Notes: generated from the sequence alone by a model not told the origin. Counted from the first letter of the stretch, positions 4,869-59,038 are shown. The stretch: DNA of 64,000 nucleotides from an uncultured Gemmatimonadaceae bacterium (GCA_963781585.1 CAWAGQ010000008.1:352001-416000); one strand, 5' to 3'. Program-made: numbers and translations.

Positions 4869-5918
4869 GTGAAGATCACGGTGCTCATGGGCGGAACATC
4901 CGCCGAACGAGACGTCTCCATAGCTTCGGGGCTGCGTATCGCGCAGGCGTTGCGCGGCCGCGGTCACGAGGTGACGTCGCTTGATACTGTGCTTGGCGTG
5001 ATCGATGTGACGGAGGAGCGGGCGCTGCTCCATTCAGGTGTGGGAACGGCTCCCCCGTCGCTCGACACCCTGGCTTCGATGTCCCGGTCGGCGATCTGGC
5101 CAGCGTTGGGGTCGCTGCCCGTGATCCGGGAAGTGGACGTCGTCTTTCTCGCGCTTCACGGAGGGGACGGTGAGGATGGCACGCTCCAGGCGTTCTTTGA
5201 CCTGTGCGGGGTCCGATATACCGCCAGCGGACCCCTCGGTAGCGCGCTGGCAATGGACAAGGAGCTGTCCAAGAAGTTGTTTCGCGCGGACGGCATACGG
5301 ACGCCGGATTGGCTGATGGCGCCGACGGCGCGAGGAGCGGACCACGGCTGGGATTCGACCGCCTTTCTCGACACGGTCGACCAGCACTTGCGGTACCCGG
5401 TGATCGTGAAGCCGTCGAAACAGGGATCAACGGTGGGCCTAACGCTGGTGAAGAAGCGACCGGACCTTGTCGCGGCGATGGACGAGGCGTTTCGCTACGA
5501 CGATGAGGTCATGCTGGAGGAGTACATTCCCGGACGTGAACTGACGGTGACGATTCTTGGCGACTCGGCATTGCCGGTGGGGGAGATCATTCCGGAGCAC
5601 GAGATCTATGATTATGAGTGCAAGTACACGAAGGGCATGGCGGTAGAGGAATTCCCTGCCCGGCTTCCGCCGGAGCAGGCCCGTGTGGTTCAGGAAGAGG
5701 CGAAGCGCGCATTTGCATCGCTGAAGCTCCGGGGGTACGGGCGGATCGACTTCCGCCTGAGCCCGCAAGGTGGTTTTTTCTGTCTGGAGGCGAACACCCT
5801 TCCGGGGATGACGGAACTGAGTCTGGTGCCACAAGCAGCGGCCGCAGCGGGGATGTCATTTCCGGAGCTCTGCGAGCGCATCGTACAGCTTGCATTCAAC
5901 GACAGGGGCGATCGGTAA
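4869..5918 (+). CDS. ddl: D-alanine--D-alanine ligase
   Basis: GGTSAERDVS, LHGGDGEDG, GSTVG, YDYECKY, LEANTLPGMT. Confidence 0.95.
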   Translation: MKITVLMGGTSAERDVSIASGLRIAQALRGRGHEVTSLDTVLGVIDVTEERALLHSGVGTAPPSLDTLASMSRSAIWPALGSLPVIREVDVVFLALHGGDGEDGTLQAFFDLCGVRYTASGPLGSALAMDKELSKKLFRADGIRTPDWLMAPTARGADHGWDSTAFLDTVDQHLRYPVIVKPSKQGSTVGLTLVKKRPDLVAAMDEAFRYDDEVMLEEYIPGRELTVTILGDSALPVGEIIPEHEIYDYECKYTKGMAVEEFPARLPPEQARVVQEEAKRAFASLKLRGYGRIDFRLSPQGGFFCLEANTLPGMTELSLVPQAAAAAGMSFPELCERIVQLAFNDRGDR

Positions 5919-5919
5919 C

Positions 5920-6579
5920 ATGGGAGCCACACCGGTACTCGCTGCGGCCCTGGCCGGCATTCCGGCGGGCATACAGAGACAGGGCATCTGCGCTGGGCGG
6001 CGACAGCTATTCGTGCGGTTCGCCGGGCCGGCAGAGACCGCGCAGATGTACACGGCAGACGCATTGGCCCGTGAGCTGAATCGCGCCCTGTCGCGGACGG
6101 TATTCCATTCCGTGTGCGTCACGGGGCGGGACGCGCTGGGCAATCCGGAATTCCTAGCCGCCGCGTTTCGACAACTCCCGCCAGGATGCGAAATCGTGGT
6201 CGATACGGACGGGCAGCGTCCGGAGTCACTGGCCGCGTTGCAGCCATTTGTGAAGCTCCTGCAGCTGACGGTGGAGCCGCCAGTTTCGGCCGCCGTACTC
6301 GAGCGCGGGATGGAGACCATTCGCACGGCAGCCCGCGCCGGTTGCGCCCATGCTGTGACGATCGCCGGTACCGACGAGGCCAGTGACGCGGATTATCTAC
6401 AGATCGTCGAGTTGACGCATGACGCCAGTGCGGCGGCGGCGATCGTGATTCACCCCGGCCCAGGCGCGGAACGGGGAGCCCTGGACAAGCGTTGGAGCGT
6501 GCTCATGGAGCATGCCTCGTCCCGGCATCGCGACGTCAGGCTGGTGTCGCGGTTGACCGGGCCGTCGACCATGCGGTAG
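5920..6579 (+). CDS. QueE/NrdG-like radical-SAM-fold protein lacking the CxxxCxxC motif
   Basis: IQRQGICAGRRQLFVRFAG resembles QueE IQGEG..G...FVR.AG; SVCVTGRDAL resembles ITGGEPL; VDTDG resembles ETNG; cysteine triad absent. Confidence 0.65.
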   Translation: MGATPVLAAALAGIPAGIQRQGICAGRRQLFVRFAGPAETAQMYTADALARELNRALSRTVFHSVCVTGRDALGNPEFLAAAFRQLPPGCEIVVDTDGQRPESLAALQPFVKLLQLTVEPPVSAAVLERGMETIRTAARAGCAHAVTIAGTDEASDADYLQIVELTHDASAAAAIVIHPGPGAERGALDKRWSVLMEHASSRHRDVRLVSRLTGPSTMR

Positions 6580-6675
6580 CCGGCATTGGGTTGCAAACCG
6601 CGTCGTGAGGGTGGAGGAACAGATGTCCGACGGACGTGATAGAAGGATGGAAGTCTTCAGTCATTCCCGTGCCGC

Positions 6676-7593
6676 ATGACCGCCCTGTCTGTCGAAGATC
6701 TCGAAAGTTCGCGCCCTCCGCGCGCGGTGCAGTGGCTGATCGCGTTGAACGTCGCGGTCTTCTACCTGCAATGGAATCTCGTGGGCTCCGGCAACATGGA
6801 GCACGCGCTCGGCTTCACATCGCGGAACCTGTCCGACGCGCCGTGGACGGTGGTTTCGCTCGTGACGTACATGTTTGTGCATGCTGGCGTGTGGCAGCTG
6901 GTGCTGAACATGTACATGCTGTGGCTGTTTGGTCCCCGGCTCGAGCGTGTCTGGAGCGCCGGTGAATTCTCGCGCTACTACATCCTATGCGGCCTCGGGG
7001 GCTGGCTGTTCCATCTCCTGTTTGCGCGTGACAGTCTTCTGGTGGGGTCGTCGGCGGCGGTCCTGGGGGTGATGCTGGCGTATTCGGCGCGGTGGCCGGA
7101 CGACGAGGTATACCTGTTCGGCATGGTGCCGATACGGGCTCGGTGGCTCGCGCCGCTCATGGGCGGCGTGCTGGTGGGCGCCGGCATGATTGCTGGTGGG
7201 GACGCTGCTGGGACCGCGTATCTGGCGCACGTGGGCGGGCTTGCGGCCGGATGGCTGTATCTCCGGTCGTCGATGTCGACCAGCATCGACCGACTGCGGC
7301 AGCGGGTCTCACAGCTCCCCGATGTCCCGGAGGAATTGCCGCGCGCCATTCCCCGTTCGATGCCACGTGTGCGTGAGCGCGGTGGGGTGATAGACGACGT
7401 TGTCGCGCGGAGCAACGCTGCGCTCGGCCAACGGTCGGCCAAGGCGTCCCCGTCGCCTGGTCGGGAGGGGCGTCGGCTGACCGATCTCAACATGGTCCTG
7501 GACAAGATCTCGCAGCAGGGGATCGACAGCCTAACGAGCGACGAGCGCAAGCTGCTGGAGGAAATGTCGCAAGAATTGCGGCGGAAGGAATAA
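6676..7593 (+). CDS. Rhomboid intramembrane serine protease with C-terminal soluble (DUF6576-like) domain
   Basis: TYMFVH, NMYMLWLFG..LE, catalytic GSS and AHVGG; tail LDKISQQGIDSLTSDERKLL. Confidence 0.88.
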   Translation: MTALSVEDLESSRPPRAVQWLIALNVAVFYLQWNLVGSGNMEHALGFTSRNLSDAPWTVVSLVTYMFVHAGVWQLVLNMYMLWLFGPRLERVWSAGEFSRYYILCGLGGWLFHLLFARDSLLVGSSAAVLGVMLAYSARWPDDEVYLFGMVPIRARWLAPLMGGVLVGAGMIAGGDAAGTAYLAHVGGLAAGWLYLRSSMSTSIDRLRQRVSQLPDVPEELPRAIPRSMPRVRERGGVIDDVVARSNAALGQRSAKASPSPGREGRRLTDLNMVLDKISQQGIDSLTSDERKLLEEMSQELRRKE

Positions 7594-7866
7594 GGGGGAC
7601 CACCGCAAACTCGTCCTGGCGGTCGTGTTCCGCCACTGGCCGCAGACGTCGATCAGCCGGAGCACCCAAGAAAGAGCCCCCCGGACATGCCGGGGGGCGG
7701 GTGCCGCCACGCCGTTCTCGCGGCGGCGTCTGCTGGCGCATACGCGCCAGCTTCCGGAAGGTACGGATGGGTGCCCGGGCTGTCCATCCCGCGTGGCGCG
7801 ATTTCCGGAGGTGTGTGCGGCGGCCCGCAGCTGGCGTGACGAATACCGAGGATAGATTGTAGCGTC

Positions 7867-8280
7867 ATGCCCCAACCGGATCTCCTGGAGACCTTTCCCA
7901 ATCCCCACCCGGGCAGACCATACGAGGTTCATCTCGTCTGCACGGAGTTCACCTCGCTCTGTCCGATGGGAGGAGTGGAGAGCGACGCCGCCGAGCTGTC
8001 GCTGCTCAATGGAGGGGCGCCGGATTTCGGGGTCATCGACATCACGTACATTCCCGCCGAGCGATGCGTGGAGCTGAAGAGTCTAAAGCTGTATCTGTGG
8101 AGCTATCGAAACGACGGGGTTTTCTACGAGCGCGCCGTGAACCAGATCCTGGATGATCTCCAGGAGCGGCTGGTGCCGCAATGGATTCGCGTGACGGGAG
8201 ATTTCAACGTGCGCGGGGGAATCAAGTCGATCATCAGCGCAACGGCGGGAGCCCCACCAGTCGAGAACGAGCGTCGTTAG
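7867..8280 (+). CDS. queF: NADPH-dependent preQ0 reductase QueF (unimodular)
   Basis: LETFPNP, EFTSLCP...PDFG, QueF motif ELKSLKLY, FYE, RGGI. Confidence 0.92.
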   Translation: MPQPDLLETFPNPHPGRPYEVHLVCTEFTSLCPMGGVESDAAELSLLNGGAPDFGVIDITYIPAERCVELKSLKLYLWSYRNDGVFYERAVNQILDDLQERLVPQWIRVTGDFNVRGGIKSIISATAGAPPVENERR

Positions 8281-8414
8281 GCCGAGACGGGACCCGGCCT
8301 GGCCGGTCGTTCGGCTGCGGTGCGGGGTGGGCGAGCGCCAAGCCAAACCGGGTGCGCGCGATCGCCGGGACGACTTGGCGAGGTGCGTGGGGGCTGGTTA
8401 CGTTTCTCGCCTCC

Positions 8415-8487: not shown

Positions 8488-9060
8488 CTCCTCGAGCAGC
8501 CCGTCGGACGGTCCGATGGAGCCGTGCGCCCGCGGTCATGGTGGTGCCAACTGACTGAGGGCCGCGCGTCCTGGGCCGCGATCCGCGGACGAGGTGTGGC
8601 GCGCACATGCCCGGTGGTGGAACTGGAAGGACATCCGCGGCCGGTGCCAATCGAGAGAGACATCGCTGCGAGAGCGCCGGCGCGGGGGAAAAGCCTCGCG
8701 CAATACCTAACGTGGGTCGAGCAGGGAGCGCCTCGCAGCATGGGGTTCTGGCCGTTCCGCCCCGGATCGTCGGCATCACGTCCGCGTGTCTCGCGACATC
8801 GAGGGAACGCGGTGGAGGCCCGGGTCAGATGGGGAAGGCGGTGAAACGGTTTGTGGGGCAGCTGGGGCAACCGTGACTGAACTGACTGGCCCGCACGTCG
8901 ATCGGGCTGGTCCCGATCGAGCCTCCGTGCCGCTCGCTCACGCTGCGGGAAGCGCCGCCAATCCGGTGTCCGGCGGCACGCCGGGCCGGGTTCGAGGCGC
9001 CCGATCCGTCCACCCGCCAACGTGGTAACCGATTGTGCGCGAGGCCGCTGGTTGCACATG

Positions 9061-10363: not shown

Positions 10364-10797
10364 AGTCAGAGGCGCGATCAGGGGGACCTGCGCCGGGTTG
10401 GCTGGGTGGTGGATGTGCAGAATAACTTCATGCAGCCGTCGGGACGGCTCTATGTGCACCACCTGTCGGATGCGCGTGATCCCGGTGCGACACTTGTTGT
10501 GGCCGCGATCGAGCGAGCAATGACCTGGATGCGAGCTCATTGCGCGGTGACGGTATTCACCGGCGACTGGCACAGCCACGGGGATCGCGAGATCGATCCG
10601 GGCATCCTGATGGGACCCGTGGCACGAGTATGCGTGAAGTCAGCCGTGGAGGGGCTGCTGGATCGGCGGTTTCGAGTGCGGGTAGTGCCTGACGCCACAT
10701 GGGGCTGGGGCTGCCGGGTTGGGACGAGACATTCGGGCTCCGGGAGCAGCCTGGCGCCGCGCTCACGCCCGTGGCGCAACTGGAGCCTAACGATTGA
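10360..10797 (+). pseudogene. pncA: Degraded nicotinamidase/isochorismatase-family gene
   Basis: Retains VVDVQNNF..PSGRLYV, TGDWH and VA..CV..AV.GLL..F.V.VV.DA; coupled ATG 10360 is out of frame with this core; central segment missing; second apparent frameshift near 10702. Confidence 0.7.
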
Positions 10798-10884
10798 GTC
10801 AGCTCCACCAACGGCCTGGTGCTCGGGCGGACACGGCCCCACCGGCTCCCCGATGTGCGACGCCTGACTCTGATTCCCGGAAGC

Positions 10885-11478: not shown

Positions 11479-11831
11479 ACACGCGGGGCCTACCGCGAAT
11501 AGTAAACCGTGTACATGTCAAATCGTGGTGGCCAGCAATCCGTACTAGGACGGTCCAACTCCCTGGAGCGTAATTGCGGCTGCCTCATCGCGCCCGGGCC
11601 ACGACAGTGGTGCGGACCAATCCGGCCGCCGGGACATCCGTCTCGTATCCCACGGTACTAGCAGCATGCCGCGAACTCGAGAACCGCCACCGACGGCGCC
11701 AACCATGACGGGGCTGGAATGGAGCTGGACCGACGCCCCTGGATATTGAAACGTAAACCTGCCAGCCGGCGAGTGCCGGACAAGTGACCGGTGCGCAGTT
11801 CACGATGGTGTGCCCGAACACAGGTGCCCGC

Positions 11832-11873
11832 GCACACATGCTCGCGCACACATGCTCGCGCACACATGCTCGC
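11832..11873 (+). repeat. Tandem repeat 3 x 14 bp (GCACACATGCTCGC)
   Basis: Exact units at 11832, 11846 and 11860. Confidence 0.9.
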
Positions 11874-12083
11874 GCGAACCGGCCTGGTGAGAATCCGCCG
11901 AAGTGCGGGACGTACGAGCGGATGAAGTCCACTGTCCAGCCTTAAGTGGACGGCTGATTCCACGCTCCTCACCGGATGGCATCGCAGTGTGCAGCGCGAA
12001 CTCGCCTCATGATTGGTGTGCGGGCCGTGATCGCTCTAACTTGGGTTGACCAGAATCGCTCTCAGCCCCCGGATCCAGAAGAC

Positions 12084-13403
12084 ATGGCCTCGCTCCACGC
12101 GCTTACCGACGTTCGGACGATTGTCGAACAACAGCCTGCCAGCCCCGGCGACGTGGCACCGGTTGCCGGGTCCCTGGAAGGGTCGGAGATCCTGAGAATT
12201 GCGGCCGACGTCCGTGCTCGCATCGCGGCAGGCGAGCGGGTCTGCAACCTCACCGTCGGCGACTTCGATCCGCGCCAGTTCCGGATTCCGAAGGTACTCG
12301 AAGACGAGACGATCGAGGCACTTCAGCAGGGACAAACCAACTACCCACCCTCGCCGGGAATGCCGGTGTTGAGAGAGGCCGTAGCCACCTTCTACGAGCG
12401 TGAGCTCGGACTCCGATATCCGGTGGACTCGATTCTGATCACCGCGGGGTCGCGCCCGGGTGTGTACGGCACCTATCGGACGGTGGTTGGAGAGGGTGAC
12501 CGGGTGGTCTACGGAGTCCCATCCTGGAACAACAACTACTACTGCCATATGGCGTGTGCCGCCGAGGTCCCGGTCCCATGCGAGCCAGCGGCCGCATTCC
12601 TGCCGTCACGGGAACGACTCGAGCCAGCTTTGCGTGGGGCCAGAATGCTGGCGCTCAATTCGCCGTTGAACCCCTGTGGCACCGCATACGACGCGGAAAC
12701 GTTAGGCGACATCTGTGACCTGGTTCTGGAGGAAAACGTCCGGCGCGCTCCGGGCGAGAGGCCTCTGTATGTGCTGTACGATCAGGTGTACTGGCAGCTC
12801 ACGTTCGGTACCACGCGGCATGTCGATCCAGTGTCGCTACGCCCCGAGATGGCGCGGTACACGGTGTACGTTGACGGGATCTCCAAAGCGTTTGCCGCCA
12901 CCGGCATGCGGGTGGGCTGGGTGATCGGGCCGAAGCACGTCATCGGCGTGATGAACAACGTGCTGGGACACATCGGCACATGGGCGCCGCGTGCCGAGCA
13001 GATAGCCACAGCGCGATTGCTGGGGTCGCCCGAGGCAATCGCAGAGTTCCGCGCACAGCTCGTAGCTGGCGTGCAGGCCCGCCTGGACCGGCTCTTCCGG
13101 GGCATTCGCGAGCTTTGCCGGGCGGGACACCCGGTTGACGCCATCGAGCCGATGGGTGCGATCTACCTCAGCGCGAAAATCGACCTGATCGGCAGGACTA
13201 CGCGTGAGGGTGTGCCCCTCCGGTCCAGCGACGATATCCAGGGGTGGCTGCTCCGGGAGGCCGGACTGGCCGTGGTTCCATTCAGTGCGTTCGGTGCGCG
13301 TGACAAGAAGGCCTGGTTCCGGCTGTCTGTAGGATCGGTTTCGCCAGCCGAAATCGAGGCCGCGCTTAGGCGACTTCATGCTGGTCTCGAATCCCTTCGC
13401 TAA
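12084..13403 (+). CDS. PLP-dependent class I/II aminotransferase
   Basis: NLTVGD, TNYPPSPG, NSPLNPCG, DQVY, DGISKAFAATGMRVGW. Confidence 0.9.
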   Translation: MASLHALTDVRTIVEQQPASPGDVAPVAGSLEGSEILRIAADVRARIAAGERVCNLTVGDFDPRQFRIPKVLEDETIEALQQGQTNYPPSPGMPVLREAVATFYERELGLRYPVDSILITAGSRPGVYGTYRTVVGEGDRVVYGVPSWNNNYYCHMACAAEVPVPCEPAAAFLPSRERLEPALRGARMLALNSPLNPCGTAYDAETLGDICDLVLEENVRRAPGERPLYVLYDQVYWQLTFGTTRHVDPVSLRPEMARYTVYVDGISKAFAATGMRVGWVIGPKHVIGVMNNVLGHIGTWAPRAEQIATARLLGSPEAIAEFRAQLVAGVQARLDRLFRGIRELCRAGHPVDAIEPMGAIYLSAKIDLIGRTTREGVPLRSSDDIQGWLLREAGLAVVPFSAFGARDKKAWFRLSVGSVSPAEIEAALRRLHAGLESLR

Positions 13404-18156: not shown

Positions 18157-18645
18157 TCAGCGGGGTCCGGTCAGCAGCTGCCGCAGAATGGTTCCGGCGT
18201 GCTGCGCTGAATCCGCGAAGTGAACAGCGGCAGTTGCGTCGAGCCGCCGGAAGAACGAGCGGGTGCCGGCATCGGCAGCCACGAAGACGATCGGACGCCG
18301 AGCTCGCAGGGCGTGGGCGGCCTCGACGGCAGTGCCGGGACTCATTCCGCAGACCGCGAGGGCGTCGCTGGAAAGGACAATAACGTTGTTGCGAGCCTGA
18401 CCCATCGCGGTGACGATGGCCACCGACAGAAAGGGGCTGGCGGCGGCATCGTTTGCATCGGGGAGAATGCCGATCACGGTGCCGCCAGCGGAGCGGGCTC
18501 CCCGACTGGCGGCGTCCATCACGCCGCTGGCTACACCACCGTTCACGACAATCCATCCTTCGCCAGCGGCCAGGGCGCCTAACGTGGCCGCATTTCGCAG
18601 GTCGTCGGGACTGGCGCTCTGGCCCGGCCCAACGATGGCCAGCAC
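18157..18645 (-). CDS. LOG/SLOG family protein (TIGR00725-like); start uncertain
   Basis: VVNGG..GVMDAASRGA...GG.VIGILP, TAMGQARN, PGTAVE. Confidence 0.8.
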   Translation of the reverse strand: MLAIVGPGQSASPDDLRNAATLGALAAGEGWIVVNGGVASGVMDAASRGARSAGGTVIGILPDANDAAASPFLSVAIVTAMGQARNNVIVLSSDALAVCGMSPGTAVEAAHALRARRPIVFVAADAGTRSFFRRLDATAAVHFADSAQHAGTILRQLLTGPR

Positions 18646-19106: not shown

Positions 19107-20435
19107 GTGACCGACCCCAGGGTTTCATCAGATCGTGCGCGTCGAACGCCGCCGATGAATCGGCGGCTCGAGGAGCGCCGCACGCCGGTTGGTGTGCCAT
19201 CGGCGCCGGTGGGCCACCGGAAGCGAGTGTGCGTGGTGATCGGAACGCGTCCGGAGGCGATCAAGATGGCCCCGGTGATTACGGAGCTCGAGCGTCACGC
19301 CGAGGAATTCGAGACCGTGATCGTCGCCACGGCACAGCATCGAGAGATGCTCGCGCAGGCGATGTCGGCGTTTCAGCTGCGGCCGCACATCGATCTGGGC
19401 CTGATGGCGACCCGTCAGGCGCTGTCGGACTTCACGTCGCGTGCCCTGCTGGCGCTGTCGAGCTGCTTCACCGAATTGCGGCCGGACCTCGTGCTGGTGC
19501 AGGGGGACACGACCACGGTCCTCGCGGCGGCTCTGGCAGCGCGGTATCTGGGCATTCCGGTGGGGCATGTCGAAGCGGGGCTACGCTCCGGGAGTCTGCA
19601 CAATCCATTTCCCGAGGAATTGAATCGTCGGCTGGCGAGCGTGATCGCGGAGCTGCATTTCGCGCCGACCGAAACGGCGCGCGCCAATCTACTGCGCGAG
19701 GGCATTCCGAACGATCGCATTCTGGTGACCGGCAATACCATCGTGGATGCGCTGGCGCGGATTCCGCGTCGGGCAGGATTTGACGAGCCGCGGCTGAACC
19801 TGTTGCCGTGGGTGTCGCAGCGGATGGTGTTGGTCACGGTGCATCGACGGGAGAGCATCGGAGATCCGCTGCGCGGCATGTGTCGGGCGTTAGGCGCGCT
19901 GGCGGATCGATATCGCGACCTGCTGATTCTCTTTCCGGTGCACCTGAATCCGCGGGTGCGAGAGATCGTGCTCGAGGAGCTGGCGGGGCGGGCGGGTGTC
20001 GAGCTGCTGGACCCCCTGAGCTATCCCGACCTGCTCGAAGTCGCACGTCGCAGTCTGTTTGTGATGACCGACTCGGGCGGGATCCAGGAGGAGTGCCCGT
20101 CGCTGCGCAAGCCGGTACTGGTACTCCGCGAAACCACGGAGCGCCCGGAGGTGATTCAGGCCGGATACGGGCGTCTGGTGGGGACCGATCCCACGGCGAT
20201 CGTCTCGGCGGCGTCGCAGCTTCTGGACGATCCTCTGGCACTGGCAGCGATGATTGATGGGGACAACCCATTTGGCGATGGGCTTGCGGCGGTTCGCATC
20301 GTACAGGCGCTGCACCGGTGGGCGCGCGAGGGTGTGACGGCGGGGGCAATTCCACGGGTGGTGCCGGGCGTAGGAACCCTGAGTCCGCTGGAGCAGGATC
20401 CTGCGGGAGCGGTCCGCAAGGCGACGGCCTTATGA
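19107..20435 (+). CDS. wecB: Non-hydrolysing UDP-N-acetylglucosamine 2-epimerase
   Basis: GTRPEAIKMAP, VQGDTT, GHVEAGLRS, PFPEE.NR, TGNTIVDA, HRRE, TDSGGIQEE, ERPE. Confidence 0.95.
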   Translation: MTDPRVSSDRARRTPPMNRRLEERRTPVGVPSAPVGHRKRVCVVIGTRPEAIKMAPVITELERHAEEFETVIVATAQHREMLAQAMSAFQLRPHIDLGLMATRQALSDFTSRALLALSSCFTELRPDLVLVQGDTTTVLAAALAARYLGIPVGHVEAGLRSGSLHNPFPEELNRRLASVIAELHFAPTETARANLLREGIPNDRILVTGNTIVDALARIPRRAGFDEPRLNLLPWVSQRMVLVTVHRRESIGDPLRGMCRALGALADRYRDLLILFPVHLNPRVREIVLEELAGRAGVELLDPLSYPDLLEVARRSLFVMTDSGGIQEECPSLRKPVLVLRETTERPEVIQAGYGRLVGTDPTAIVSAASQLLDDPLALAAMIDGDNPFGDGLAAVRIVQALHRWAREGVTAGAIPRVVPGVGTLSPLEQDPAGAVRKATAL

Positions 20436-21250
20436 GAGGGAGGGGACTGGCTGTCGCTGCCCGACTGGCGATGGTCTCGGCGACGTGTGGCGCGCTCGCC
20501 GGGCAGCTGCTTGCCCAGTCGCCCGACAGTTCGTCGGGCCGCAATCGTCGGATCGACCTTTCCGTGGACCAGCATCAGGTGAGCCATGGACTGGGAGATT
20601 GGCACAGCGCCGAACTGCGTCTGGTAATTCCACAAGCAGCGGGGCGCACCGTGTGGTATGGGGACGCGTTGTGGCGGCAGGCGTTCCATGACGAGGGTGT
20701 GTATGCGTCGGTGGCCGTTCAGCAGGTATTGTCGCGGGACTGGTTCGTCTTCGTGAGTCTGGGCGGCGGCAGCGGCGATTTCCTCTTTCCGGATCTCCGC
20801 GCGGACGCCTCCTTGTCGTACAAGTGGCTCGCCAGCCAGCGACTGGTGACGACGGTGGGAGGGACGATGGTTGACGCGAAGCGCGGCTATCGTGAAGAGA
20901 GCGTCTTTGCGGCGTTCGATGCATATCCAGTGGCGGGGATGGTCCTCGAAGCCGGAGTCCGTGGGAGCCGGACCTCGCCGGGGGGCGTGGATTCCCAGCG
21001 GACGTTTGGCGCACTCACGTTAGGCAGCGAAGGAACCCGCTATGTCACGTTTCGGGGCTCCACTGGCACCGAGGGATACCAACTACTGGGTCCGAGCACG
21101 GTGATAGCCAAGTTCACCAGCCACGAGGGCGCGGTGGGGTGGCGTGAGTGGCTGGGACGGACATGGGGAGCGCTGGCCCAGGGCGAGTACTACACGAACC
21201 CCAGCTATCGGCGGACGGGGGTGACGATCGGTGTCTTCGCGCACTGGTAG
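20432..21250 (+). CDS. YaiO-like outer-membrane beta-barrel protein
   Basis: Signal peptide, amphipathic strands, C-terminal YYTNPSYRRTGVTIGVFAHW; ATGA overlap with wecB. Confidence 0.75.
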   Translation: MRGRGLAVAARLAMVSATCGALAGQLLAQSPDSSSGRNRRIDLSVDQHQVSHGLGDWHSAELRLVIPQAAGRTVWYGDALWRQAFHDEGVYASVAVQQVLSRDWFVFVSLGGGSGDFLFPDLRADASLSYKWLASQRLVTTVGGTMVDAKRGYREESVFAAFDAYPVAGMVLEAGVRGSRTSPGGVDSQRTFGALTLGSEGTRYVTFRGSTGTEGYQLLGPSTVIAKFTSHEGAVGWREWLGRTWGALAQGEYYTNPSYRRTGVTIGVFAHW

Positions 21251-25859: not shown

Positions 25860-25966
25860 GCCCTTCCGTTCTCATCTCCGCGGCTGGCTCCCGGGCCAGG
25901 CTCCGCGCCAGGCTGTCGCGTGCTGCGGAGCGAGCGCTACCGCGCCTAACGATTCCAGAGACCGAG

Positions 25967-26014: not shown

Positions 26015-26319
26015 GAACGGCGACAACCCAGTCGCCAGCGTACAACGTAAGACGAACCACGCATTTGCGCGAGTCCGTGGTGCGGAATCGCGCCGGCATC
26101 TCTGCCGTACGGCTGCCACTCTGATGCCGTCCTCCGGTGCGGTGCCCGACCAGCCGCCGTCGCGATCGCACCGCTACCATGACCAAGGACCTCGGCTGGT
26201 GGCGATTTGGTCACCGGTTCACGAGGTGCTCACGACGGTACGCCCCGGCGGCTGGTCCCGGATGCCCTCCCCGAAGGCAGTGCCTAACGAGGCTGCCGCC
26301 AGGCGGGGAGGCGTCGCGT

Positions 26320-35328: not shown

Positions 35329-37029
35329 GTGCTCGCGTCCCTTCCCGAATCTCCGCAAGCGATTGCCGCGGCCTCCTGGCCCGACCTGGCGCCCTACTAC
35401 GACGGGCTCGCCACCGTTGGTCTGGGGCCTAACGATGCCGAGTCGTGGCTCCGGAGCTGGTCGTGCCTGGAGGAGGTGATCGACGAGGCCGGTACGTTGG
35501 CGATGATCGCGTACACGTGTGACACGACCGACCTGGAGAAGGAGGCTGCGAATCTCCGCTGGTCCGCCGAGATCTTTCCCAAGGTCGGAGAGCAGCAGGT
35601 ACGGCTGGCGAAGCGGCTGATCGCGCTCGGCTACACGCGGCCGGATCTGGAGACCGTGATCCGCGGTTTTCGCACGGACATCGAGATCTTCCGCGAGGAG
35701 AACGTGCCGCTGTTCTCGCAGATCGAGGAATTGGTGGCCGCGTACCAGAAGATCACCGGAGGGCTGGAGGTGGAGTGGGACGGCCAGAAGAAGACCGTTC
35801 CGCAGCTGCAGCCGTATCTCAAGGAGCGAGATCGCGGGATCCGGGAGCGGGCGTTTCGGGTGGGGACGGAGGCCTACGCAAGCCGGCGGCAGGAGATGGC
35901 CTCGTTGTTCGACCGGATGTACGAGCTGCGGCAGCAGGTTGCGCGCAACGCGGGGTTCCCGGACTACCAGGCGTATGTGTTCAGGGCCAAGCACCGGTTC
36001 GACTATTCGCCCGCGGATTGTGCGACGTTTCACCAGGCGGTCGAGGAGACGGTCGTCCCTGCAGTGGAGCGGCTGATGGACTACCGTCGGCAGCGACTCG
36101 GAGTGGACGCGTTGCGGCCATGGGATACGCAGGTTGAACTGGAGTCGTCACGGCCGGTGAAGCCTTTCGACTCGATCGGGGGATTCATCGGACCGGCGAT
36201 CCGGATGTTCCGTGCGCTCGACGGTGAGCTCGGGGCGGCGTTCCAACGCATGGCCGACGAGGGTCTGCTCGACCTCGAGAGTCGGTCAGGCAAGGCACCT
36301 GGCGGATACTGCACAAAACTCGCCTGGCGCGGCGTGCCGTTCATCTTCATGAACGCGGTGGGGGTTCCGGATGATGTGAACACCCTGGTGCACGAGGCGG
36401 GTCATTGCTTCCACGACTTTGCCGCCCACGGCCAACCGTTCATCTGGCAGCGCAGTGTGGGACATGAAGCCGCCGAGCTGGCCTCGATGAGCATGGAGCT
36501 GCTGGCGGCCGCCCATCTGGCAGAGCCAACGGGATATTACACGTCGGATGAGGCGCGGTCGGTTCAGATCGAGCATCTCGAGGACGTGCTGGTGAGCCTG
36601 GCCCACATCGCGAGCGTGGATGCCTACCAGCGGTGGATCTACACCAGCGGACAGGGAGGCGATGCTGCGGCACGTGACGCGGCATGGCTGGCGATCCGGG
36701 CCCGCTTCGAACACGGCGTGGACTGGCGTGGCCTGGAGCGTGAGCGCGTGGCACGGTGGTATCGGCAGCTGCACATCTTCGAGTATCCGTTCTACTACAT
36801 CGAGTACGGGATCGCCCAGCTGGGCGCGTTGCAGCTGTGGCGCGCGAGCCTCGGCGACCCCGGGGGGGTGGTGGAGCGGTACAAGCAGGCACTCGCGTTA
36901 GGCGGTACCCGCTCCCTGCCGGAGATCTACCGGACCGCGGGGGCGCGGCTCATTTTTGACGCCGCCGGCATGGGGGAGCTGGTGGCGCTGGTGGAGCGGC
37001 GGATCGCAGAGCTTCGGGCCGCCGGGTAG
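35329..37029 (+). CDS. M3 family oligoendopeptidase
   Basis: GKAPGGY, HEAGH, AELASMSME, HIF..PFYYIEY. Confidence 0.93.
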   Translation: MLASLPESPQAIAAASWPDLAPYYDGLATVGLGPNDAESWLRSWSCLEEVIDEAGTLAMIAYTCDTTDLEKEAANLRWSAEIFPKVGEQQVRLAKRLIALGYTRPDLETVIRGFRTDIEIFREENVPLFSQIEELVAAYQKITGGLEVEWDGQKKTVPQLQPYLKERDRGIRERAFRVGTEAYASRRQEMASLFDRMYELRQQVARNAGFPDYQAYVFRAKHRFDYSPADCATFHQAVEETVVPAVERLMDYRRQRLGVDALRPWDTQVELESSRPVKPFDSIGGFIGPAIRMFRALDGELGAAFQRMADEGLLDLESRSGKAPGGYCTKLAWRGVPFIFMNAVGVPDDVNTLVHEAGHCFHDFAAHGQPFIWQRSVGHEAAELASMSMELLAAAHLAEPTGYYTSDEARSVQIEHLEDVLVSLAHIASVDAYQRWIYTSGQGGDAAARDAAWLAIRARFEHGVDWRGLERERVARWYRQLHIFEYPFYYIEYGIAQLGALQLWRASLGDPGGVVERYKQALALGGTRSLPEIYRTAGARLIFDAAGMGELVALVERRIAELRAAG

Positions 37030-38271: not shown

Positions 38272-38432
38272 CGCCCTGTCGGCGGCGTGCAGCTGTCGGG
38301 GTGAGGAGGAAGCACGGTTCCGTGCCGGTGGGCCCGCGGCGCGGTGGATGGGGCCGGCGTCGCCGGCGACGGGCGGATTGCAGCCGGGCTGCGCCCATTT
38401 CGGGTCGGCATACCTAACGAGGACAGGAGACG

Positions 38433-38771
38433 ATGCGAGCATCCATGGTGACAATGTCGATGTCGCTGGACGGGTACGTGGTGGAGGAGACGCTTGGCGT
38501 GGTGCGCGGCATCGTGGTGCGTTCCCGCTCGGTGTTCGGGACGGTGGGGGCGAAGCTCCAGACGTTGCTGGGCGGGAACATCACGCTGCTGACCGAGCTC
38601 TGCGAGCGAACGCGCGCCGACGCCTTCGCCCAGATGATCAGCCACGCCGAGTTGTTAGGCGCGAACGCGGTGCTCTGTGTGCGGTACGACGCCACGGAGA
38701 TCATGCAGGGCGTGACCGAGGTGCTGTGCTACGGCACGGCCGTTCGGGCGGCCCCGGCCCCGGTGCGGTAG
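38433..38771 (+). CDS. YbjQ/UPF0145 family protein
   Basis: LGVVRG, GG.I...TEL...R..A, GANAV..VRYD, YGTAV. Confidence 0.9.
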   Translation: MRASMVTMSMSLDGYVVEETLGVVRGIVVRSRSVFGTVGAKLQTLLGGNITLLTELCERTRADAFAQMISHAELLGANAVLCVRYDATEIMQGVTEVLCYGTAVRAAPAPVR

Positions 38772-39000
38772 CGGGGACGGCGGGGGGCGGGGCGGTTCGG
38801 GAGCGGCGGTTCCCCGGGCCGGGGGACCTAACGGTGGCGTGCCTCACGAGAGGCGGCGGCCGGGTTCGCGCGCCAGCCGGGGATGGTGTATACTTGTGCC
38901 ACACGGATCGGGTCCCGGAGTTGCGGGCCGACAGGCGGTACTCACCTTCACTCGCCGCTCTGCCGTCGTAAGGCGGAAGCGGCACTTCCGGAGCACTGTC

Positions 39001-41840: not shown

Positions 41841-42387
41841 GCACGGTCCCGACCCCGGTCCGCGTCGCCTGGGCGACCGGGTTCCGGCTACGCTGACTCT
41901 CACGTCGCCGGCGTTTCGGCACGGGGAGGCCATTTCCCCGCAATTCACCTGCGATGGGGAAGACCGCAGCCCTCCCCTGGCGTGGCGCGATACGCCGGAG
42001 GGAACACAGACGTTTGTCCTGATCATGGACGACCCGGACGCTCCCAATCCCGCTGCGCCCAGGCGCGTGTATGTGCACTGGGTCCTGTACGACATTCCGG
42101 CAGTCACGACGCATCTGGAGCCCGGGTCTGGAAACGGCGCCGCGCAAGCGGGAAGCCGGGACGGGAAGAACGACGGCGGGCGCACCGGATACACCGGCCC
42201 CTGCCCGCCGATCGGGCGTCACCGCTATTTCTTTCACCTGTACGCGCTGGATGCTGCGTTAGGCGATCGACGGGAGCCGACGAAGGCCGAGGTTCTGAAG
42301 GCGATGGACGGCCACATTCTGGCGCAGGCGGAGCTGGTCGGCACCTATGCGCGGGGCGGGAAACAGTCGCCGCTCGCCTTGCCGTAG
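41791..42387 (+). CDS. YbhB/YbcL (PEBP) family protein; start uncertain
   Basis: LTSPAF, TCDG...SPPL.W, DDPDAP, HWVLY, YTGPCPP.GRHRYFF.LYALD. Confidence 0.88.
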   Translation: MGRTLAWTRGPCHSGHEHGPDPGPRRLGDRVPATLTLTSPAFRHGEAISPQFTCDGEDRSPPLAWRDTPEGTQTFVLIMDDPDAPNPAAPRRVYVHWVLYDIPAVTTHLEPGSGNGAAQAGSRDGKNDGGRTGYTGPCPPIGRHRYFFHLYALDAALGDRREPTKAEVLKAMDGHILAQAELVGTYARGGKQSPLALP

Positions 42388-43795: not shown

Positions 43796-45370
43796 GTGAT
43801 CGTACTGCTGCAGTCCATCGTGCCCCAGCCGGCAACCCGGATCGGCGAGCCGAATCGGGTGGCGATGATCTTCTTCTTCGTGTTCATCGCCATCACCCTG
43901 CTGATCACCTACTGGGCGGCGCGGCGCACACGGACCACCGAGGAGTTCTACGCCGCCGGTCGCACCATCAGTGCCGGACAGAACGGGTTTGCCCTGGCCG
44001 GCGACTACATGAGCGCGGCGTCGTTCCTCGGGATCGCGGGGCTGGTATCGACGAAGGGATTCGACGGGCTGATCTACTCGACCGGATGGTTGGTGGGATG
44101 GCCGGTGGTGCTGTTCCTCATCGCCGAGCCGCTGCGCAACCTGGGCCGATATACGTTCGCGGACGTGGTGGCGGCCCGCCTGCGTCAGGGCCCGGTGCGA
44201 ATCGCTGCGGCGCTCGGCACGCTGGCCACCGTGTCGCTGTATCTGATCGCGCAGATGGTTGGGGCGGGCGGACTGATCAAGCTCATGTTCGGTCTGTCGT
44301 ACGAGAGTGCGATCGTGATCGTGGGGCTGGCGATGATGGCCTACGTGCTGTTTGGTGGGATGATCGCGACGACGTGGGTGCAGATCGTCAAGGCGGCGCT
44401 GTTGCTGTGCGGCGCGGTGCTGCTGGCGCTGCTGGTGCTGGACCGATTCGGCATGAACCCGATTGCGCTGTTCCGGGCGGCGGCGGCCTCGTATGGCGAT
44501 GGCGTGCTGGCGCCCGGCGGGCTGGTGTCGAAACCACTCGATGCGGTGTCGTTAGGCATGGCGCTGATGTTCGGCACCGCGGGCCTGCCCCACATTCTGA
44601 TGCGGTTCTACACGGTTCCCGACGCGCGGGCGGCGCGGAAGTCGGTGTTCTACGCCACCGGGCTGATCGGGTTCTTCTATCTGATGACGTTCGTTCTCGG
44701 ATTCGGCGCCATGGTCCTGGTCGGGCCGTCGGCGATCACGGCGGTGGACAAGGGTGGCAACATGGCGGCGCCGCTTCTGGCGGAGGCGCTGGGGGGGACG
44801 CCGTTCCTGGGCTTCATCGCGGCGGTGGCGTTCGCGACCATTCTGGCCGTGGTGGCCGGACTGACCCTTTCCGGGGCCGCGGCCCTGTCGCACGATCTGT
44901 GGGTGAGCGTGGTGCGTGGCGGGCGAGCCACGCCGCACGAGCAGCTGCGGGTGGCGCGCATCGCGACGGTTCTGCTCGGGGGGCTGGCGATCCTGCTGGG
45001 GATCACCTTCAAGGGGCAGAACGTGGCATACATGGTGTCGCTGGCGTTTGCCATTGCCGCCAGCGGCAACTTCCCGGCGCTGGTGCTGTCCATCTTCTGG
45101 CGCCGATGCACGACCAGCGGCGTGGTGTCGAGCATGGTCGTGGGCACGGTTGCCTCGCTCGTCCTGATCTATCTCTCGCCGACGATTCAGGTGGACATCC
45201 TCAAACGCGCGGGTGCCGCCTTTCCACTCCGAAATCCAGCGCTGGTGACGATTCCCTTGTCTTTCCTGACGGCGATTGTCGTGTCGCTCCTCACCGGCAA
45301 CCGGGCCACCCGCGATGCCTATTCGCGGGTGGAACGGCAAATGCACGTCGGCGTGAAAGCGGAGGCGTGA
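43796..45370 (+). CDS. actP: Cation/acetate symporter ActP (SSS family)
   Basis: NGFALAGDYMSAASFLG, GTAGLPHILMRF, AFATILAVVAGL, HDL. Confidence 0.93.
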   Translation: MIVLLQSIVPQPATRIGEPNRVAMIFFFVFIAITLLITYWAARRTRTTEEFYAAGRTISAGQNGFALAGDYMSAASFLGIAGLVSTKGFDGLIYSTGWLVGWPVVLFLIAEPLRNLGRYTFADVVAARLRQGPVRIAAALGTLATVSLYLIAQMVGAGGLIKLMFGLSYESAIVIVGLAMMAYVLFGGMIATTWVQIVKAALLLCGAVLLALLVLDRFGMNPIALFRAAAASYGDGVLAPGGLVSKPLDAVSLGMALMFGTAGLPHILMRFYTVPDARAARKSVFYATGLIGFFYLMTFVLGFGAMVLVGPSAITAVDKGGNMAAPLLAEALGGTPFLGFIAAVAFATILAVVAGLTLSGAAALSHDLWVSVVRGGRATPHEQLRVARIATVLLGGLAILLGITFKGQNVAYMVSLAFAIAASGNFPALVLSIFWRRCTTSGVVSSMVVGTVASLVLIYLSPTIQVDILKRAGAAFPLRNPALVTIPLSFLTAIVVSLLTGNRATRDAYSRVERQMHVGVKAEA

Positions 45371-50699: not shown

Positions 50700-50761
50700 C
50701 CGACCTCCGACCTCCGACCTCCGACCTCCGACCTCCGACCTCCGACCTCCGACCTCCGACC
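50700..50761 (+). repeat. Heptamer tandem repeat (CCGACCT) x 8 plus a partial copy
   Basis: Eight exact units followed by CCGACC. Confidence 0.95.
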
Positions 50762-56527: not shown

Positions 56528-56572
56528 AGTTCAAAGCCCAGAGGCCAAGGGCCACAGTCCAGAGACCACAGA
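56528..56572 (+). repeat. Degenerate heptamer array
   Basis: AGTTCAA AGCCCAG AGGCCAA GGGCCAC AGTCCAG AGACCAC AGA. Confidence 0.55.
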
Positions 56573-56613
56573 TTTTTCACTTCCAACGCACGGTTCACGG
56601 AGCCTGACGCCAC

Positions 56614-57579
56614 ATGTCCAAACGCATCGGCCTCTTCGTGGGCAGAGAGTGGTCCTGGCCGCCCGCCTTCATCGAGGAAGTGGAGAAGCGCGACCAGGGG
56701 GTGACCGCCGAATACGCGAAGATCGGCGGCGAGCATCACGACACGCCGGCGCCGTACGACGTGCTCATCGACCGGATCTCTCACGAGGTGCCGATGTATC
56801 GCTCGTACCTGAAGAAGGCGGTGCTCGACGGTCGGATGGTGGTGAACAACCCCTTCATGTGGACGGCCGACGACAAGTTCTTCGGCGCGGCGCTGATCCG
56901 CCGCCTCGGCGTGGTGTCGCCGAAGACCGTGCTCCTGCCGAACAAGGATTACGTCGAGGGTATCGTTCCGCACGAGAGTCTGCGAAACCTCCGATATCCG
57001 CTCGACTGGAAGGAAATCGTCGCCTGGGTGGGGCTGCCGTGCGTGCTGAAGGATGCCCACGGCGGGGGGTGGAAGGAGGTGCACGTCTGCCGCTCGCTCG
57101 ATGAGTTGATCAACCGGTACGATCAGTCCGGCCGTCTGACGATGATCGTGCAGGAATTCATCGAATGGGATCAGTTCGTTCGCTGCCTGTGCATCGGCCG
57201 GCAGGGGGTACTGCCCATGAAGTACGACCCCGGTTCGCGGAAGTACCTGGTCGAGCACGAGCACCTCACGCCGGAGCTGGGTGCCCGGGTCGTGAACGAT
57301 TCGCTGACCATCGTCCGGGCGTTAGGCTACGACATGAACTCGATCGAATGGGCCATTCGCGATGGGATTCCCTACGCGATCGATTTCATGAACCCGGCGC
57401 CGGACATGGACGTGTATTCGCTGACGCCGATGTACTTCGAGTGGGCGGTGGAGAAGATGGCGACGATGGCGATTCGCCTGGCGAAGACCCCCCATCCGCA
57501 GGTTGCCGAGCTGCACTGGAGCCGGATGTTCAGCCAGGACGCACGTCACGGCGCGGTGCACTCGCCGGGCGCGCCATGA
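56614..57579 (+). CDS. ATP-grasp ligase (RimK/GshB-like fold)
   Basis: VVNNPF..DDKF, PKT, LKDAHGGGW, VQEFI, IDFMNPAPD. Confidence 0.85.
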   Translation: MSKRIGLFVGREWSWPPAFIEEVEKRDQGVTAEYAKIGGEHHDTPAPYDVLIDRISHEVPMYRSYLKKAVLDGRMVVNNPFMWTADDKFFGAALIRRLGVVSPKTVLLPNKDYVEGIVPHESLRNLRYPLDWKEIVAWVGLPCVLKDAHGGGWKEVHVCRSLDELINRYDQSGRLTMIVQEFIEWDQFVRCLCIGRQGVLPMKYDPGSRKYLVEHEHLTPELGARVVNDSLTIVRALGYDMNSIEWAIRDGIPYAIDFMNPAPDMDVYSLTPMYFEWAVEKMATMAIRLAKTPHPQVAELHWSRMFSQDARHGAVHSPGAP

Positions 57580-57655
57580 TCGGGCGTGGACGAGCCGCGC
57601 CGATGCGCGGCCGGCGTGCGGACGTGCCGGCGTGCGGAGCGAATCGGGTCGGAGT

Positions 57656-59038
57656 GTGGATCGCCCCGCCCCTCTCCTGGTGCCCGCCGTGCTGCACGAC
57701 GCCGTAGCGCGGTACCACGACCTGCTGACGCCGGAACTGGCGGAAGCATCGGCCGAGCACCTCGACCATGCGCTCCGGAGGCATGGGCTGGTGTTCGGCG
57801 ACCGGGCGTTGTGCACCGTGCTTCGGCCGCGCCTGCTGACCGGCGATGCCTATCGGCGCCTCCAGGGGCGCATCGTGCCGCTGCTGCGGGCGTTTCGCGC
57901 CGCCCATGAGCGCGCGATGGCCGACCGCGAGTTCCGGGCGCAATTCCGGCTTGGCGAATGGGAGGAGTCACTCCTCGCCGCGGACCCCAGGTTCGATGCG
58001 CCAAGCCCGACGTCGCGGCTGGATTTCTTCTACGCGCCCGATACGGATGTCCTGGGGCTGACGGAATACAATGCCGAGACGCCGGCTGGTGCGGCCTATA
58101 GCGACGCGCTCGCCGAGGTGTTCCTCGATCTGCCGGCGATGCGCGCTTTCGCCGCCGAATACGAGATCCTGCCAGTGCCCTGTCGGCAGGGTGTGGTCGG
58201 CGCATTGCTGGACGCCTACTATCAGTTCGCCGGCTCGCGCGACCGTCCGCGGATCGCGATCCTCGATTGGCCCGACGTGCCCACGGTGACGGAGTTCGAG
58301 TTGTACGCCGAGCACTTCCTGGCCCTTGGAATCGAGTGCCTGATCGGCGACCCGCGCCAGGCGGATTATCGACAAGGACAATTGTGGATCGGTGGGACCG
58401 CGGTCACCCTGATCTACAAGCGCGTGCTGATCAGCGAGCTGGTGACCCGGTGCGGGCTCGACTCGCCAGTGGTGCGGGCGGTCCGGGACGGCGCGGTGTG
58501 CATGGTGGACGGGTTCCGGTGCAAGATCCTGCACAAGAAAGCAAGCCTGGCGGTGCTGAGCGACGAACGAAACGCGCGTCTGTTCGGAGGCGCCGAGCGG
58601 CGGGCGATTGCGGACTGCATTCCCTGGACCCGGGTGGTCGAGGAGCGCCACACGACGTACCGGGATGAGTCGGTGGACCTGGTGCCGTTCATCATTCGTG
58701 AGCGGGAACGCTTCGTGCTCAAGCCTAACGATGACTACGGCGGGCGGGGAATCACCCTGGGCTGGCGCGTGGACGGGAGCCAATGGGAGGCCGCGGTGCG
58801 GAATGCGCTGGCCGAACCGTTCATCGTGCAGGAGCAGGTGGCCGTACCATCGGAACCGTATCCGGCGTGGGTCGACGGCCGGCTGCAGATTCTGGAACGC
58901 CAGTACGACACCGCGCCGTTCATCACCAACGGCGCGTACATGGAGGGCATGCTGGCACGGCTGTCGACCGACCCGTTGCTCAACGTGACCGCCGGTGGCG
59001 GAAGCACGGTACCCATGTTTCTGGTGGAGAAGCGATGA
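57656..59038 (+). CDS. Circularly permuted ATP-grasp ligase; start uncertain
   Basis: [47 protein letters not shown]. Confidence 0.82.

Follow-up and report, generated by a model that had tools for sequence, protein, structure and literature searches.

An over-represented word in a chromosomal window

We analysed a stretch of 64,000 nucleotides from an uncultured Gemmatimonadaceae bacterium (GCA_963781585.1, CAWAGQ010000008.1:352001-416000, hereafter the window, with positions counted from its first letter), through which copies of the octamer 5'-GCCTAACG-3' (5'-CGTTAGGC-3' on the opposite strand) are dispersed. The window is ordinary chromosome, with MutS, Ddl, rhomboid, QueF, AdoHcyase, WecB and glycogen-metabolism genes and one tRNA-Phe, and the gene names that an earlier note on this DNA had given to copy-bearing genes (ddl, rhomboid, wecB, actP of the SSF type, M3 peptidase) agree with Pfam. 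Its GC content is 65%, the GC skew is positive in 16 of 16 bins of 4 kb and nearly all genes are on the plus strand, so that the whole window belongs to a single replichore in which genes are strongly co-oriented. Among the matches listed for its AdoHcyase, the best are metagenome-assembled genomes (MAGs) of Gemmatimonadales at 77-79% identity. Beyond these 64 kb of the source genome, the sequences read were a 12.7-kb piece of a Gemmatimonadaceae MAG (L041) and, from Gemmatirosa kalamazoonensis KBS708, the whole of plasmid 1 and a 50-kb piece of plasmid 2. From these sequences we conclude with high confidence that the octamer is a lineage-specific DNA word, present as solitary double-stranded copies through the ordinary genes of some Gemmatimonadaceae and identical to the integron core. 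The signal lies at the DNA level and is independent of orientation, perfect copies dominate, their spacing is even, and the word is patchy across lineages.

The window holds 16 exact copies, 8 on each strand, and all of those that the earlier note had listed were recovered at their positions and on their strands. Fourteen lie wholly within open reading frames (ORFs), and 12 of these 14 centre on a leucine codon, as xCG|TTA|GGC (8 copies) or xGC|CTA|ACG (4 copies), the other two reading G|CCT|AAC|G. The CTA copies are all sense and on the plus strand, in the Ddl ORF (5437..5444, GGC|CTA|ACG, Gly-Leu-Thr), the rhomboid ORF (7529..7536, AGC|CTA|ACG, Ser-Leu-Thr), ORF 10406-10867, which has no Pfam match (10785..10792, AGC|CTA|ACG), and ORF 26137-26940 (26282..26289, TGC|CTA|ACG). 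The mRNA reads ACG|TTA|GGC (Thr-Leu-Gly) in the aminotransferase ORF (12700..12707, minus strand), in the SLOG/LDcluster4 ORF, itself on the minus strand (18577..18584, word on the plus strand), and in the YaiO-barrel ORF (21018..21025, minus); it reads GCG|TTA|GGC (Ala-Leu-Gly) in the UDP-GlcNAc 2-epimerase (WecB) ORF (19888..19895, minus), the M3 peptidase ORF (36896..36903, minus), the PEBP-family ORF (42257..42264, minus) and ORF 56614-57579 (57320..57327, minus), and TCG|TTA|GGC in the ORF of the sodium:solute symporter of ActP type (44550..44557, minus). Two plus-strand copies read Pro-Asn in sense, one in the M3 peptidase ORF (35427..35434) and one in ORF 57503-59038 (58723..58730). The copy at 8275..8282 (minus, hence CGTTAGGC on the plus strand) gives the TAG stop (8278-8280) of the QueF-like ORF 7867-8280, the frame being taken from the ORF end coordinate, and the copy at 25944..25951 (plus) falls outside called ORFs, between 24966-25859 and 26137-26940.

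The four one-mismatch copies claimed earlier are likewise real. Three are ACCTAACG (position 1 G>A) on the plus strand, at 8705..8712, at 38412..38419 shortly 5' of the start of ORF 38433-38771, and at 38826..38833 in the intergenic DNA downstream of that ORF, against 0.34 expected; the fourth is GCCTAACA on the minus strand at 38653..38660, inside ORF 38433-38771, where it reads TG|TTA|GGC (Leu-Leu-Gly). Three of the four thus lie within 420 nt around this small ORF (112 amino acids, GC content at third codon positions (GC3) 0.92), the copy at 38412 sitting just ahead of its ribosome-binding site.

To set expectations for the exact word, we made 100 dinucleotide-preserving shuffles of the window, in which the word averaged 0.94 copies and never exceeded 3, with 0 of 100 reaching 16; the over-representation is therefore stronger than the earlier note had claimed, its figure of 2-3 expected copies being somewhat high. 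A codon-shuffled null, which that note had named as a check, leaves the enrichment standing: across 45 ORFs (55,083 nt), 1000 within-gene shuffles of synonymous codons gave a mean of 0.72 and a maximum of 5, against 14 in the ORFs. With an observed-to-expected ratio of 35.6 under an order-3 Markov model, GCCTAACG is the top over-represented 8-mer of the window, where its density is about 1 per 4 kb. The next-ranked 8-mer that does not overlap it reaches 6.8, so that other octamers containing TTA or CTA are not equally common, a possibility the earlier note had raised. The heptamers GCCTAAC and CCTAACG occur 17 and 19 times, which gives the word sharp edges. The flanks of the 16 copies have nothing in common, each being unique, and the information content outside the 8 bp is nil in the 30 copies of the window and L041.

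These counts bear on the reading that the word is an artefact of chance, of codon or dipeptide usage or of copies of a repeated or mobile element. One commoner variant does have such an explanation: GCCTGACG occurs 15 times in the window against 3.85 expected because the codon pair CTG-ACG is frequent. For the word itself, neither set of shuffles reaches the observed count, the flanks are unique, the central codons are the rarest for leucine, and enrichment recurs in three further independent sequences (L041, plasmid 1 and the plasmid 2 piece), so we give an artefact practically no weight. A codon-usage origin was rejected on the 0 of 1000 codon shuffles that reach 14, and a repetitive extragenic palindrome, miniature inverted-repeat transposable element or other dispersed repeat on the unique flanks, the copies of the window and L041 and the 777 of the plasmid showing neither a conserved flank nor a hairpin around the core. 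We also dropped a ninth-base preference against G, seen as 2 G among the 30 copies of the window and L041, yet 216 G among 777 on plasmid 1.

The earlier note's claim that the word forces rare codons is borne out by the 12 of 14 in-ORF copies centred on TTA or CTA. Among 1821 leucine codons in the 45 ORFs, CTG is used 936 times, CTC 551, TTG 144, CTT 126, CTA 45 and TTA 19; TTA is the rarest, and 8 of its 19 occurrences lie in CG|TTA|GGC. Where the window encodes [Ala/Thr/Ser/Pro]-Leu-Gly, xCG TTA GGC is the commonest single coding (8 of 46 tripeptides), xGC CTA ACG takes 4 of 36 [Gly/Ser/Cys/Arg]-Leu-Thr tripeptides, and in the CG-Leu-GGC contexts that we tallied the rarest leucine codon stands in 8 of 18. 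The protein sequence may be affected too: in Ddl the copy at 5437..5444 falls in a conserved stretch, GSxVG(L/M)S, at the place where solved Ddl proteins have GLS or GMS, and it encodes Gly-Leu-Thr, with Thr where those homologues carry Ser, a single case.

Occurrence in relatives and on the Gemmatirosa plasmids

To sample relatives, we searched genome contigs with AdoHcyase and kept 80 loci of at least 599 matches, the source genome not being among the 80; AdoHcyase is very conserved, and the nearest relatives may fall outside this set. The word is present in 13 of the 80 loci, 12 of which have 1 or 2 copies. L041, which alone among the 80 keeps the window's gene order beyond the ArsR-methyltransferase and AdoHcyase genes, has 6 exact copies and 11 of CCTAACG in 12.7 kb. 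Its proteins are only 52-76% identical to their window orthologues and its copies, mostly CG|TTA|GG(C/T) with two C|GTT|AGG|C, lie at other positions than those of the window; the one usable orthologous site has TLG in L041 opposite VIA in the window. Fourteen other Gemmatimonadota loci (211.8 kb) hold 2 copies in all, which is background level. In an 8.4-kb locus of another Gemmatimonadales MAG (L010), GCATAACGA occurs four times within 1068-7972, marginal after multiple testing; three of these copies read CGT|TAT|GC (Arg-Tyr-Ala), and the sequence is possibly a dialect that differs from the word by one letter. The over-represented words of other loci were mostly local tandem arrays of 7-8-mers or palindromes counted twice, and were set aside as not being scattered words.

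On plasmid 1 of G. kalamazoonensis KBS708 (1,106,233 bp, 72.7% GC, covered in 23 pieces) we counted 777 copies (374 on the plus and 403 on the minus strand; 778 with one overlapping pair), or 0.70 per kb, where order-1 and order-2 Markov models predict 15-16. The 50-kb piece of plasmid 2 has 33 copies and no attC-like pair. The word is thus dense in the window, L041, plasmid 1 and the plasmid 2 piece and common to a lineage, which upholds the earlier proposal of a genome-wide signal. As many as 777 of the 916 CCTAAC hexamers of plasmid 1 fall inside the octamer, and the flanks of the 777 copies show codon periodicity only. Of the 24 one-off variants most are at or below expectation on plasmid 1, with strong enrichment at position 8 only (GCCTAACA 77 copies, 20-fold; GCCTAACT 21 copies, 5.5-fold); GCCTAACC has 16 copies, and a few others are mildly raised, partly through attC sites. 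The strict core is accordingly seven bases long, GCCTAAC (GTTAGGC), with the eighth base strongly G.

We then assigned frames on plasmid 1, using gene calls that are crude and based on GC3. The 777 copies fall into CG|TTA|GGC (307), G|CCT|AAC|G (173), C|GTT|AGG|C (41) and GC|CTA|ACG (26), and into the stop readings GCC|TAA|CG (57) and CGT|TAG|GC (44), with 129 lacking a convincing ORF; all six frames are occupied. Within a crude set of 531 ORFs, 16 of 38 TAA and 22 of 131 TAG stops lie in the word, whose density is 0.83 per kb outside that set and 0.60 per kb inside. An apparent association with start codons (ATG-CCT-AAC-G) was discarded, most cases being the antisense reading ..TTA|GGC|AT. 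The word is accommodated by recoding, through Leu TTA or CTA, Pro-Asn CCT-AAC, Val-Arg GTT-AGG and TAA or TAG stops, and since both strands and six frames are filled in this way, a directional force on the DNA maintains it. That force is strong enough to override codon preference and sometimes the amino acid. The 716 copies outside the integron of plasmid 1 are also evenly spaced, the coefficient of variation of their spacing being 0.85 against 0.998 +/- 0.036, with 0 of 2000 simulations as low, and gaps below 200 nt number 53 against 91 expected. Separately, the sites at 3666, 8387, 24625, 31613 and 51807 of plasmid 1 (L081-L083, about 0-106 kb) recur at +53,060 with identical 88-nt contexts, which suggests either that about 53 kb are duplicated or that the assembly contains a repeat.

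Orientation and density are where a Chi-like hotspot (for RecBCD or AddAB), or another polar motif such as FtsK-orienting polar sequences (KOPS), has to be weighed. Chi, KOPS and SpoIIIE recognition sequences (SRS) are, like the present word, over-represented 8-mers, and are read by DNA-processing machines and strongly skewed with replication. The density in the window is near that of Chi in E. coli, and some parts of plasmid 1 have slightly more CGTTAGGC on their G-rich strand. The present word differs in lacking replication skew and in being much more enriched: its copies are shared 8:8 between the strands of a window with positive GC skew in each of 16 bins, and its 17- to 50-fold enrichment is far above that of Chi. 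On plasmid 1 orientation tracks the gene strand, with 55-70% of cases having CGTTAGGC in the mRNA. It does not track the replichore, CGTTAGGC being on the inferred leading strand at 99 of 176 and 127 of 254 gene-assigned sites (GC skew is weak there and the replichores are uncertain). With gene strand allowed for, no replication polarity is left on the 1.1-Mb replicon, in line with the earlier note's argument that the word is not polarised like Chi or KOPS, and we regard a polar motif as highly improbable.

The same data bear on a site bound by some other host protein under weak selection per copy, as is assumed for highly iterated palindrome 1 (HIP1) or architecture-imparting sequences. The protein could be a nucleoid- or chromosome-organising factor, a defence or repair system for which the word marks self against non-self, or a domesticated integrase-like binder. 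Such a protein would fit the independence from orientation and replicon position, the even spacing, the very strict specificity and the retention of the word across genera despite orthologue identities of about 50-76%. There is a precedent for great abundance in HIP1, which passages of PMC5861425 give as 15- to 300-fold over-represented and without known function. Saturation seems too high for weak selection, however, with the rarest leucine codon in 8 of 18 CG-Leu-GGC contexts and Thr placed where Ddl homologues have Ser; the integron-core identity described below would go unexplained unless the reader derives from an integrase, and no candidate protein was found in the window. We place this explanation on the unlikely side.

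Identity with the integron core

Plasmid 1 also carries a family of repeats of about 94 nt each, confined to 810-882 kb, that start with ..CTAACGC.GGAGTTCAGCTGCG.. and end with ..CAGCTGCAACGATTCGTTAGG... We identified 62 attC sites at 813.5-855.6 kb, separating 61 short intervals (36.2 kb in total), and an adjoining ORF (856,827-857,786, minus strand) that scores 423 bits on the NCBIfam profile TIGR02249 'integron integrase' (cut-off 265) and is 54% identical to class 3 integrases on plasmids. On the left side of the array, 16 ORFs were scanned and none is an integrase; only an ATPase, an FMN reductase and a SnoaL-like protein matched. The integrase shares its strand with most cassette ORFs (40 of the 61 longest are on the minus strand) and has its 3' end facing the array; this is the co-oriented or 'inverted' layout, as distinct from the usual divergent one. 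The replicon had already been recorded by IntegronFinder 2.0 as carrying one of the two largest 'plasmid' integrons, and the passages of that paper on the Gemmatirosa integron say nothing of scattered cores (PMC9024848). Integrons are known in Gemmatimonadota, as passages of PMC8618304 state; the integron itself was therefore already known and the scatter is what is new.

Folded as single strands, the attC repeats reach z-scores of -3.1 to -5.6. In the predicted structure the octamer pairs with its complement to form an 8-bp stem; the other elements are an unpaired spacer, a second stem that carries single-base bulges and a variable loop, which together make up the attC architecture. R and L boxes, a conserved AAC triplet and extra-helical bases are given as attC features in passages of PMC12614218. 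In the 45 attCs that follow a strict pattern, the R'' core is GCCTAACG in 15, GGCTAACG in 10, GTCTAACG in 9 and ACCTAACG in 4, and the R' core is CGTTAGGC in 27, CGTTAGAC in 10, CGTTAGGT in 4 and CGTTAGGG in 3. In the nomenclature R''/L''/L'/R' the core consensus sequences are RYYYAAC and GTTRRRY, and GTTAGGC fits G|TTRRRY at 7 of 7 positions. The octamer GCCTAACG/CGTTAGGC is thus the recombination core of integrons (G|TTAGGC, with GCCTAAC as inverse core) extended by one base, and forms the 8-bp R-box stem of attC. This identity was missed when the earlier note drew up its candidate readers, and it changes that set.

The attCs of Aquabacterium olei pTB101 and Thiodictyon pTs485 also start with GCCTAAC and end with GTTAGGC, and their integrases are 53-55% identical to the Gemmatirosa enzyme. 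Published oligonucleotides carry the same core, ..AAAGTTAGGCATC.. for the class 1 attI1 (in passages of PMC2811028) and ..GCGTTAGGT.. for attC_aadA7 (in passages of PMC12614218). Since unrelated integrons have the same core, the integron did not copy its host. Two 50-kb pieces of pTB101 and pTs485 served as controls and hold GCCTAAC 10 and 14 times, mostly in or beside attC pairs. Solitary GCCTAAC occurs at 0.08 and 0.16 per kb in these controls, against 0.27 in the window, 0.55 in L041, 0.77 on plasmid 1 and 0.84 in the plasmid 2 piece; the integron core is general, and the genome-wide scatter, which the two proteobacterial integrons lack, is not. Genes for IS110-family transposases are annotated near or among the attCs of both control plasmids (L105, L106).

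The scattered copies are identical in sequence to the core or attC R-box (GCCTAAC/GTTAGGC plus one base) and lack every other attC feature that we looked for: they have no partner core 50-150 nt away, no L boxes, no hairpin and no nearby integrase, and they lie by the hundreds per Mb in housekeeping genes. The window has no attC-like inverted pair, all 17 GCCTAAC copies being solitary, and among the first 80 loci only two unconvincing candidate pairs were seen (L031 and L080). Outside the array, plasmid 1 has one lone attC (881.7 kb) and one half-site (810.28 kb, at the far end). Cassette interiors (36.2 kb) hold 5 copies against 23.5 expected at the plasmid rate, and their ORFs have a lower GC3 (median 0.75).

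The solitary octamers could on this evidence be secondary target sites of the integron integrase, equivalent to single R-boxes of the attG or attI type. IntI would bind them and might cross over at G|TT, and their abundance would come from co-evolution of host and integron, as landing or crossover sites, or from conversion through abortive strand exchange. In sequence the word matches exactly the R-box found in the resident attCs and in unrelated integrons, its strict 7-mer has the same extent as the core site GTTAGGC, and the enzyme is a genuine IntI; the depletion of cassette interiors would fit selection against internal sites, and the deficit of close copies would fit avoidance of deletions between neighbours. 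Passages of a preprint show integrases inserting cassettes at many genomic sites, solitary attG among them, yet the consensus they give for genomic insertion by IntI1, IntI2 and IntI3 is only GWT, with hotspots unlike attI (bioRxiv 10.1101/2022.09.11.507474). Other observations also stand against such targets. There is no known mechanism by which an integrase would multiply its own target word, and the scatter is stricter than the attC R-boxes of the same replicon, where R' is CGTTAGGC in just 27 of 45: plasmid-wide, the exact word occurs 778 times and its GAC, GGT and GGG variants 35, 14 and 7 times. Almost no lone attC accompanies the roughly 700 scattered copies on 1.1 Mb, two replicons with related integrases and the same core lack scatter, insertion would break housekeeping genes, and neither an integrase (56 ORFs scanned) nor an attC was found in the window. 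We consider integrase targets an unlikely explanation.

A proposed uptake-type drive and comparison with known genomic words

To our knowledge, hyper-abundant genomic words are few (DNA uptake sequences, DUS; uptake signal sequences, USS; HIP1; Chi), and the present one alone is the core of a recombination system. It most resembles the DUS of Neisseriaceae and the USS of Pasteurellaceae in being a short non-palindromic word, hyper-abundant on both strands, mostly inside ORFs, unbiased in orientation and evenly spaced, with perfect copies dominant. DUS and USS are common to related genera and absent from others; the word, for its part, is dense in the window, L041 and both Gemmatirosa plasmids and at background in 14 other loci, a distribution that may be of this kind. 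Passages of PMC1939737 describe DUS and USS as lying largely in ORFs, not palindromic, without orientation bias and with an even spacing, and DUS dialects are described in passages of PMC3630211. The differences are the phylum, Gemmatimonadota; a core of 7-8 bp without AT-rich flanks, which coincides with an integron core; and the lack of an excess of inverted or terminator pairs. An uptake role is a candidate here by analogy. HIP1 (GCGATCGC, of cyanobacteria) is also a mostly genic octamer with huge over-representation (passages of PMC5861425) and differs in being palindromic, the present word having in addition a cognate in a recombination system. Of the signals that the earlier note had suggested, one that acts on DNA, genome-wide and without polarity holds, and a DUS-like role is still the best candidate mechanism. 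A HIP1-like, methylation-linked palindrome is a poor fit, as the word and its reverse complement are not the same.

We tentatively propose, from the likeness to DUS and USS, a word kept by uptake or recombination drive, whose reader shares or inherited the specificity for the R-box. A sequence-specific reader would recognise the word on any fragment and in either orientation; it might be the DNA receptor of a transformation or recombination pathway, with a specificity that coincides with the integron R-box or was seeded by it. Alleles carrying the word would then be favoured whenever homologous DNA is taken up and recombined, much as in biased gene conversion. Such a drive would saturate tolerant sites, lift perfect above one-off copies, even out the spacing and deplete mobile cassettes of the word. 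The word itself may have been seeded by a large resident integron through its many attC copies. As each attC holds two inverted copies, the drive would act preferentially on DNA from cassettes. Putative parts of this proposal are the reader, the uptake bias, competence in these bacteria and the direction of the link to the integron.

The uptake-plus-recombination drive of DUS and USS is, as far as we know, the only established process that gives this set of traits. We favour a drive of this kind over the integrase as reader given that the latter has no known way to multiply its target, that the scattered copies are stricter, that lone attCs are few and that related integrons elsewhere lack the scatter.

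Several points weigh against an uptake-type drive. The 56 ORFs of the window, which cover this part of the genome only, include no uptake machinery, competence gene or candidate receptor (nor an integron integrase). No paper was found in the literature that joins an uptake sequence with a Gemmatimonad, and natural transformation is not documented there for the phylum. A pure uptake model can account for the match to the integron core only with an extra assumption, of seeding or co-option; we calculate that roughly 0.4% of random 8-mers would fit GTTRRRY in some register on either strand. Inverted pairs of the terminator type, a trait of Neisseria DUS, are absent: the window has none, and outside the integron array plasmid 1 has about 7 pairs 40-130 nt apart against about 12 expected (own estimate). 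A tree of AdoHcyase (20 rows, of which L046 is mis-framed) leaves 12 of 17 inner branches open and does not resolve a single clade of motif-bearing lineages. Lastly, the only protein family that we know to read this word is the integron integrase, which favours the integrase sites considered above.

A further reading, which we hold to be quite unlikely, takes the scattered word as an interface between integron and genome, in that either the uptake or recombination machinery reads the R-box or the solitary R-boxes are integrase substrates. In the first case, R-box-marked DNA would be preferentially imported and kept, including cassettes from donors with the same core, and the scatter would be a by-product. 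In the second, chromosomal segments could enter or leave the cassette pool, offering a route to the unsolved origin of gene cassettes. Passages of PMC8618304 call the origin of new cassettes an outstanding question, and chromosomal integrons were recently reported to gain cassettes through natural transformation (passages of PMC12614218).

We searched the literature with the literal octamer and found only primers and similar items among the matches listed. Titles, opening lines of abstracts and passages of papers on integrons, attC, uptake sequences and Gemmatimonad or Gemmatirosa contain no description of the scatter, and the survey PMC2843746 mentions neither Gemmatimonas nor the word. The discovery of DUS, USS, HIP1 and Chi led in each case to new work on uptake, recombination or the maintenance of genomes; here a genome-wide signal is tied to the system that assembles gene cassettes, in a little-studied soil phylum where it makes up a large share of rare codons (8 of 19 TTA in the window, 16 of 38 TAA on plasmid 1). 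One carrier, G. kalamazoonensis KBS708, is cultured, so that uptake, binding and recombination are directly approachable. In practice the word marks the lineage sharply, which is useful in binning and in recognising foreign DNA in these genomes, and it accounts for odd choices of codons and stops.

Two other repeats lie in the window. A tandem 14-mer, TGCTCGCGCACACA, is repeated 3.6 times at 11825-11875, upstream of the aminotransferase ORF, and a perfect tandem heptamer, (CCGACCT) x 8.9, lies at 50700-50761 between the M50-CBS peptidase ORF (end 50612) and the GH57 gene. Tandem arrays of 7-8 nt were also found in L001, L004, L008, L013, L038 and L053, in many cases as an inverted pair of arrays with 30-200 nt between them, and GGACTGAAG arrays of the same kind as the heptamer array occur on the Gemmatirosa plasmid; such arrays look like a recurrent intergenic structure in these soil phyla.

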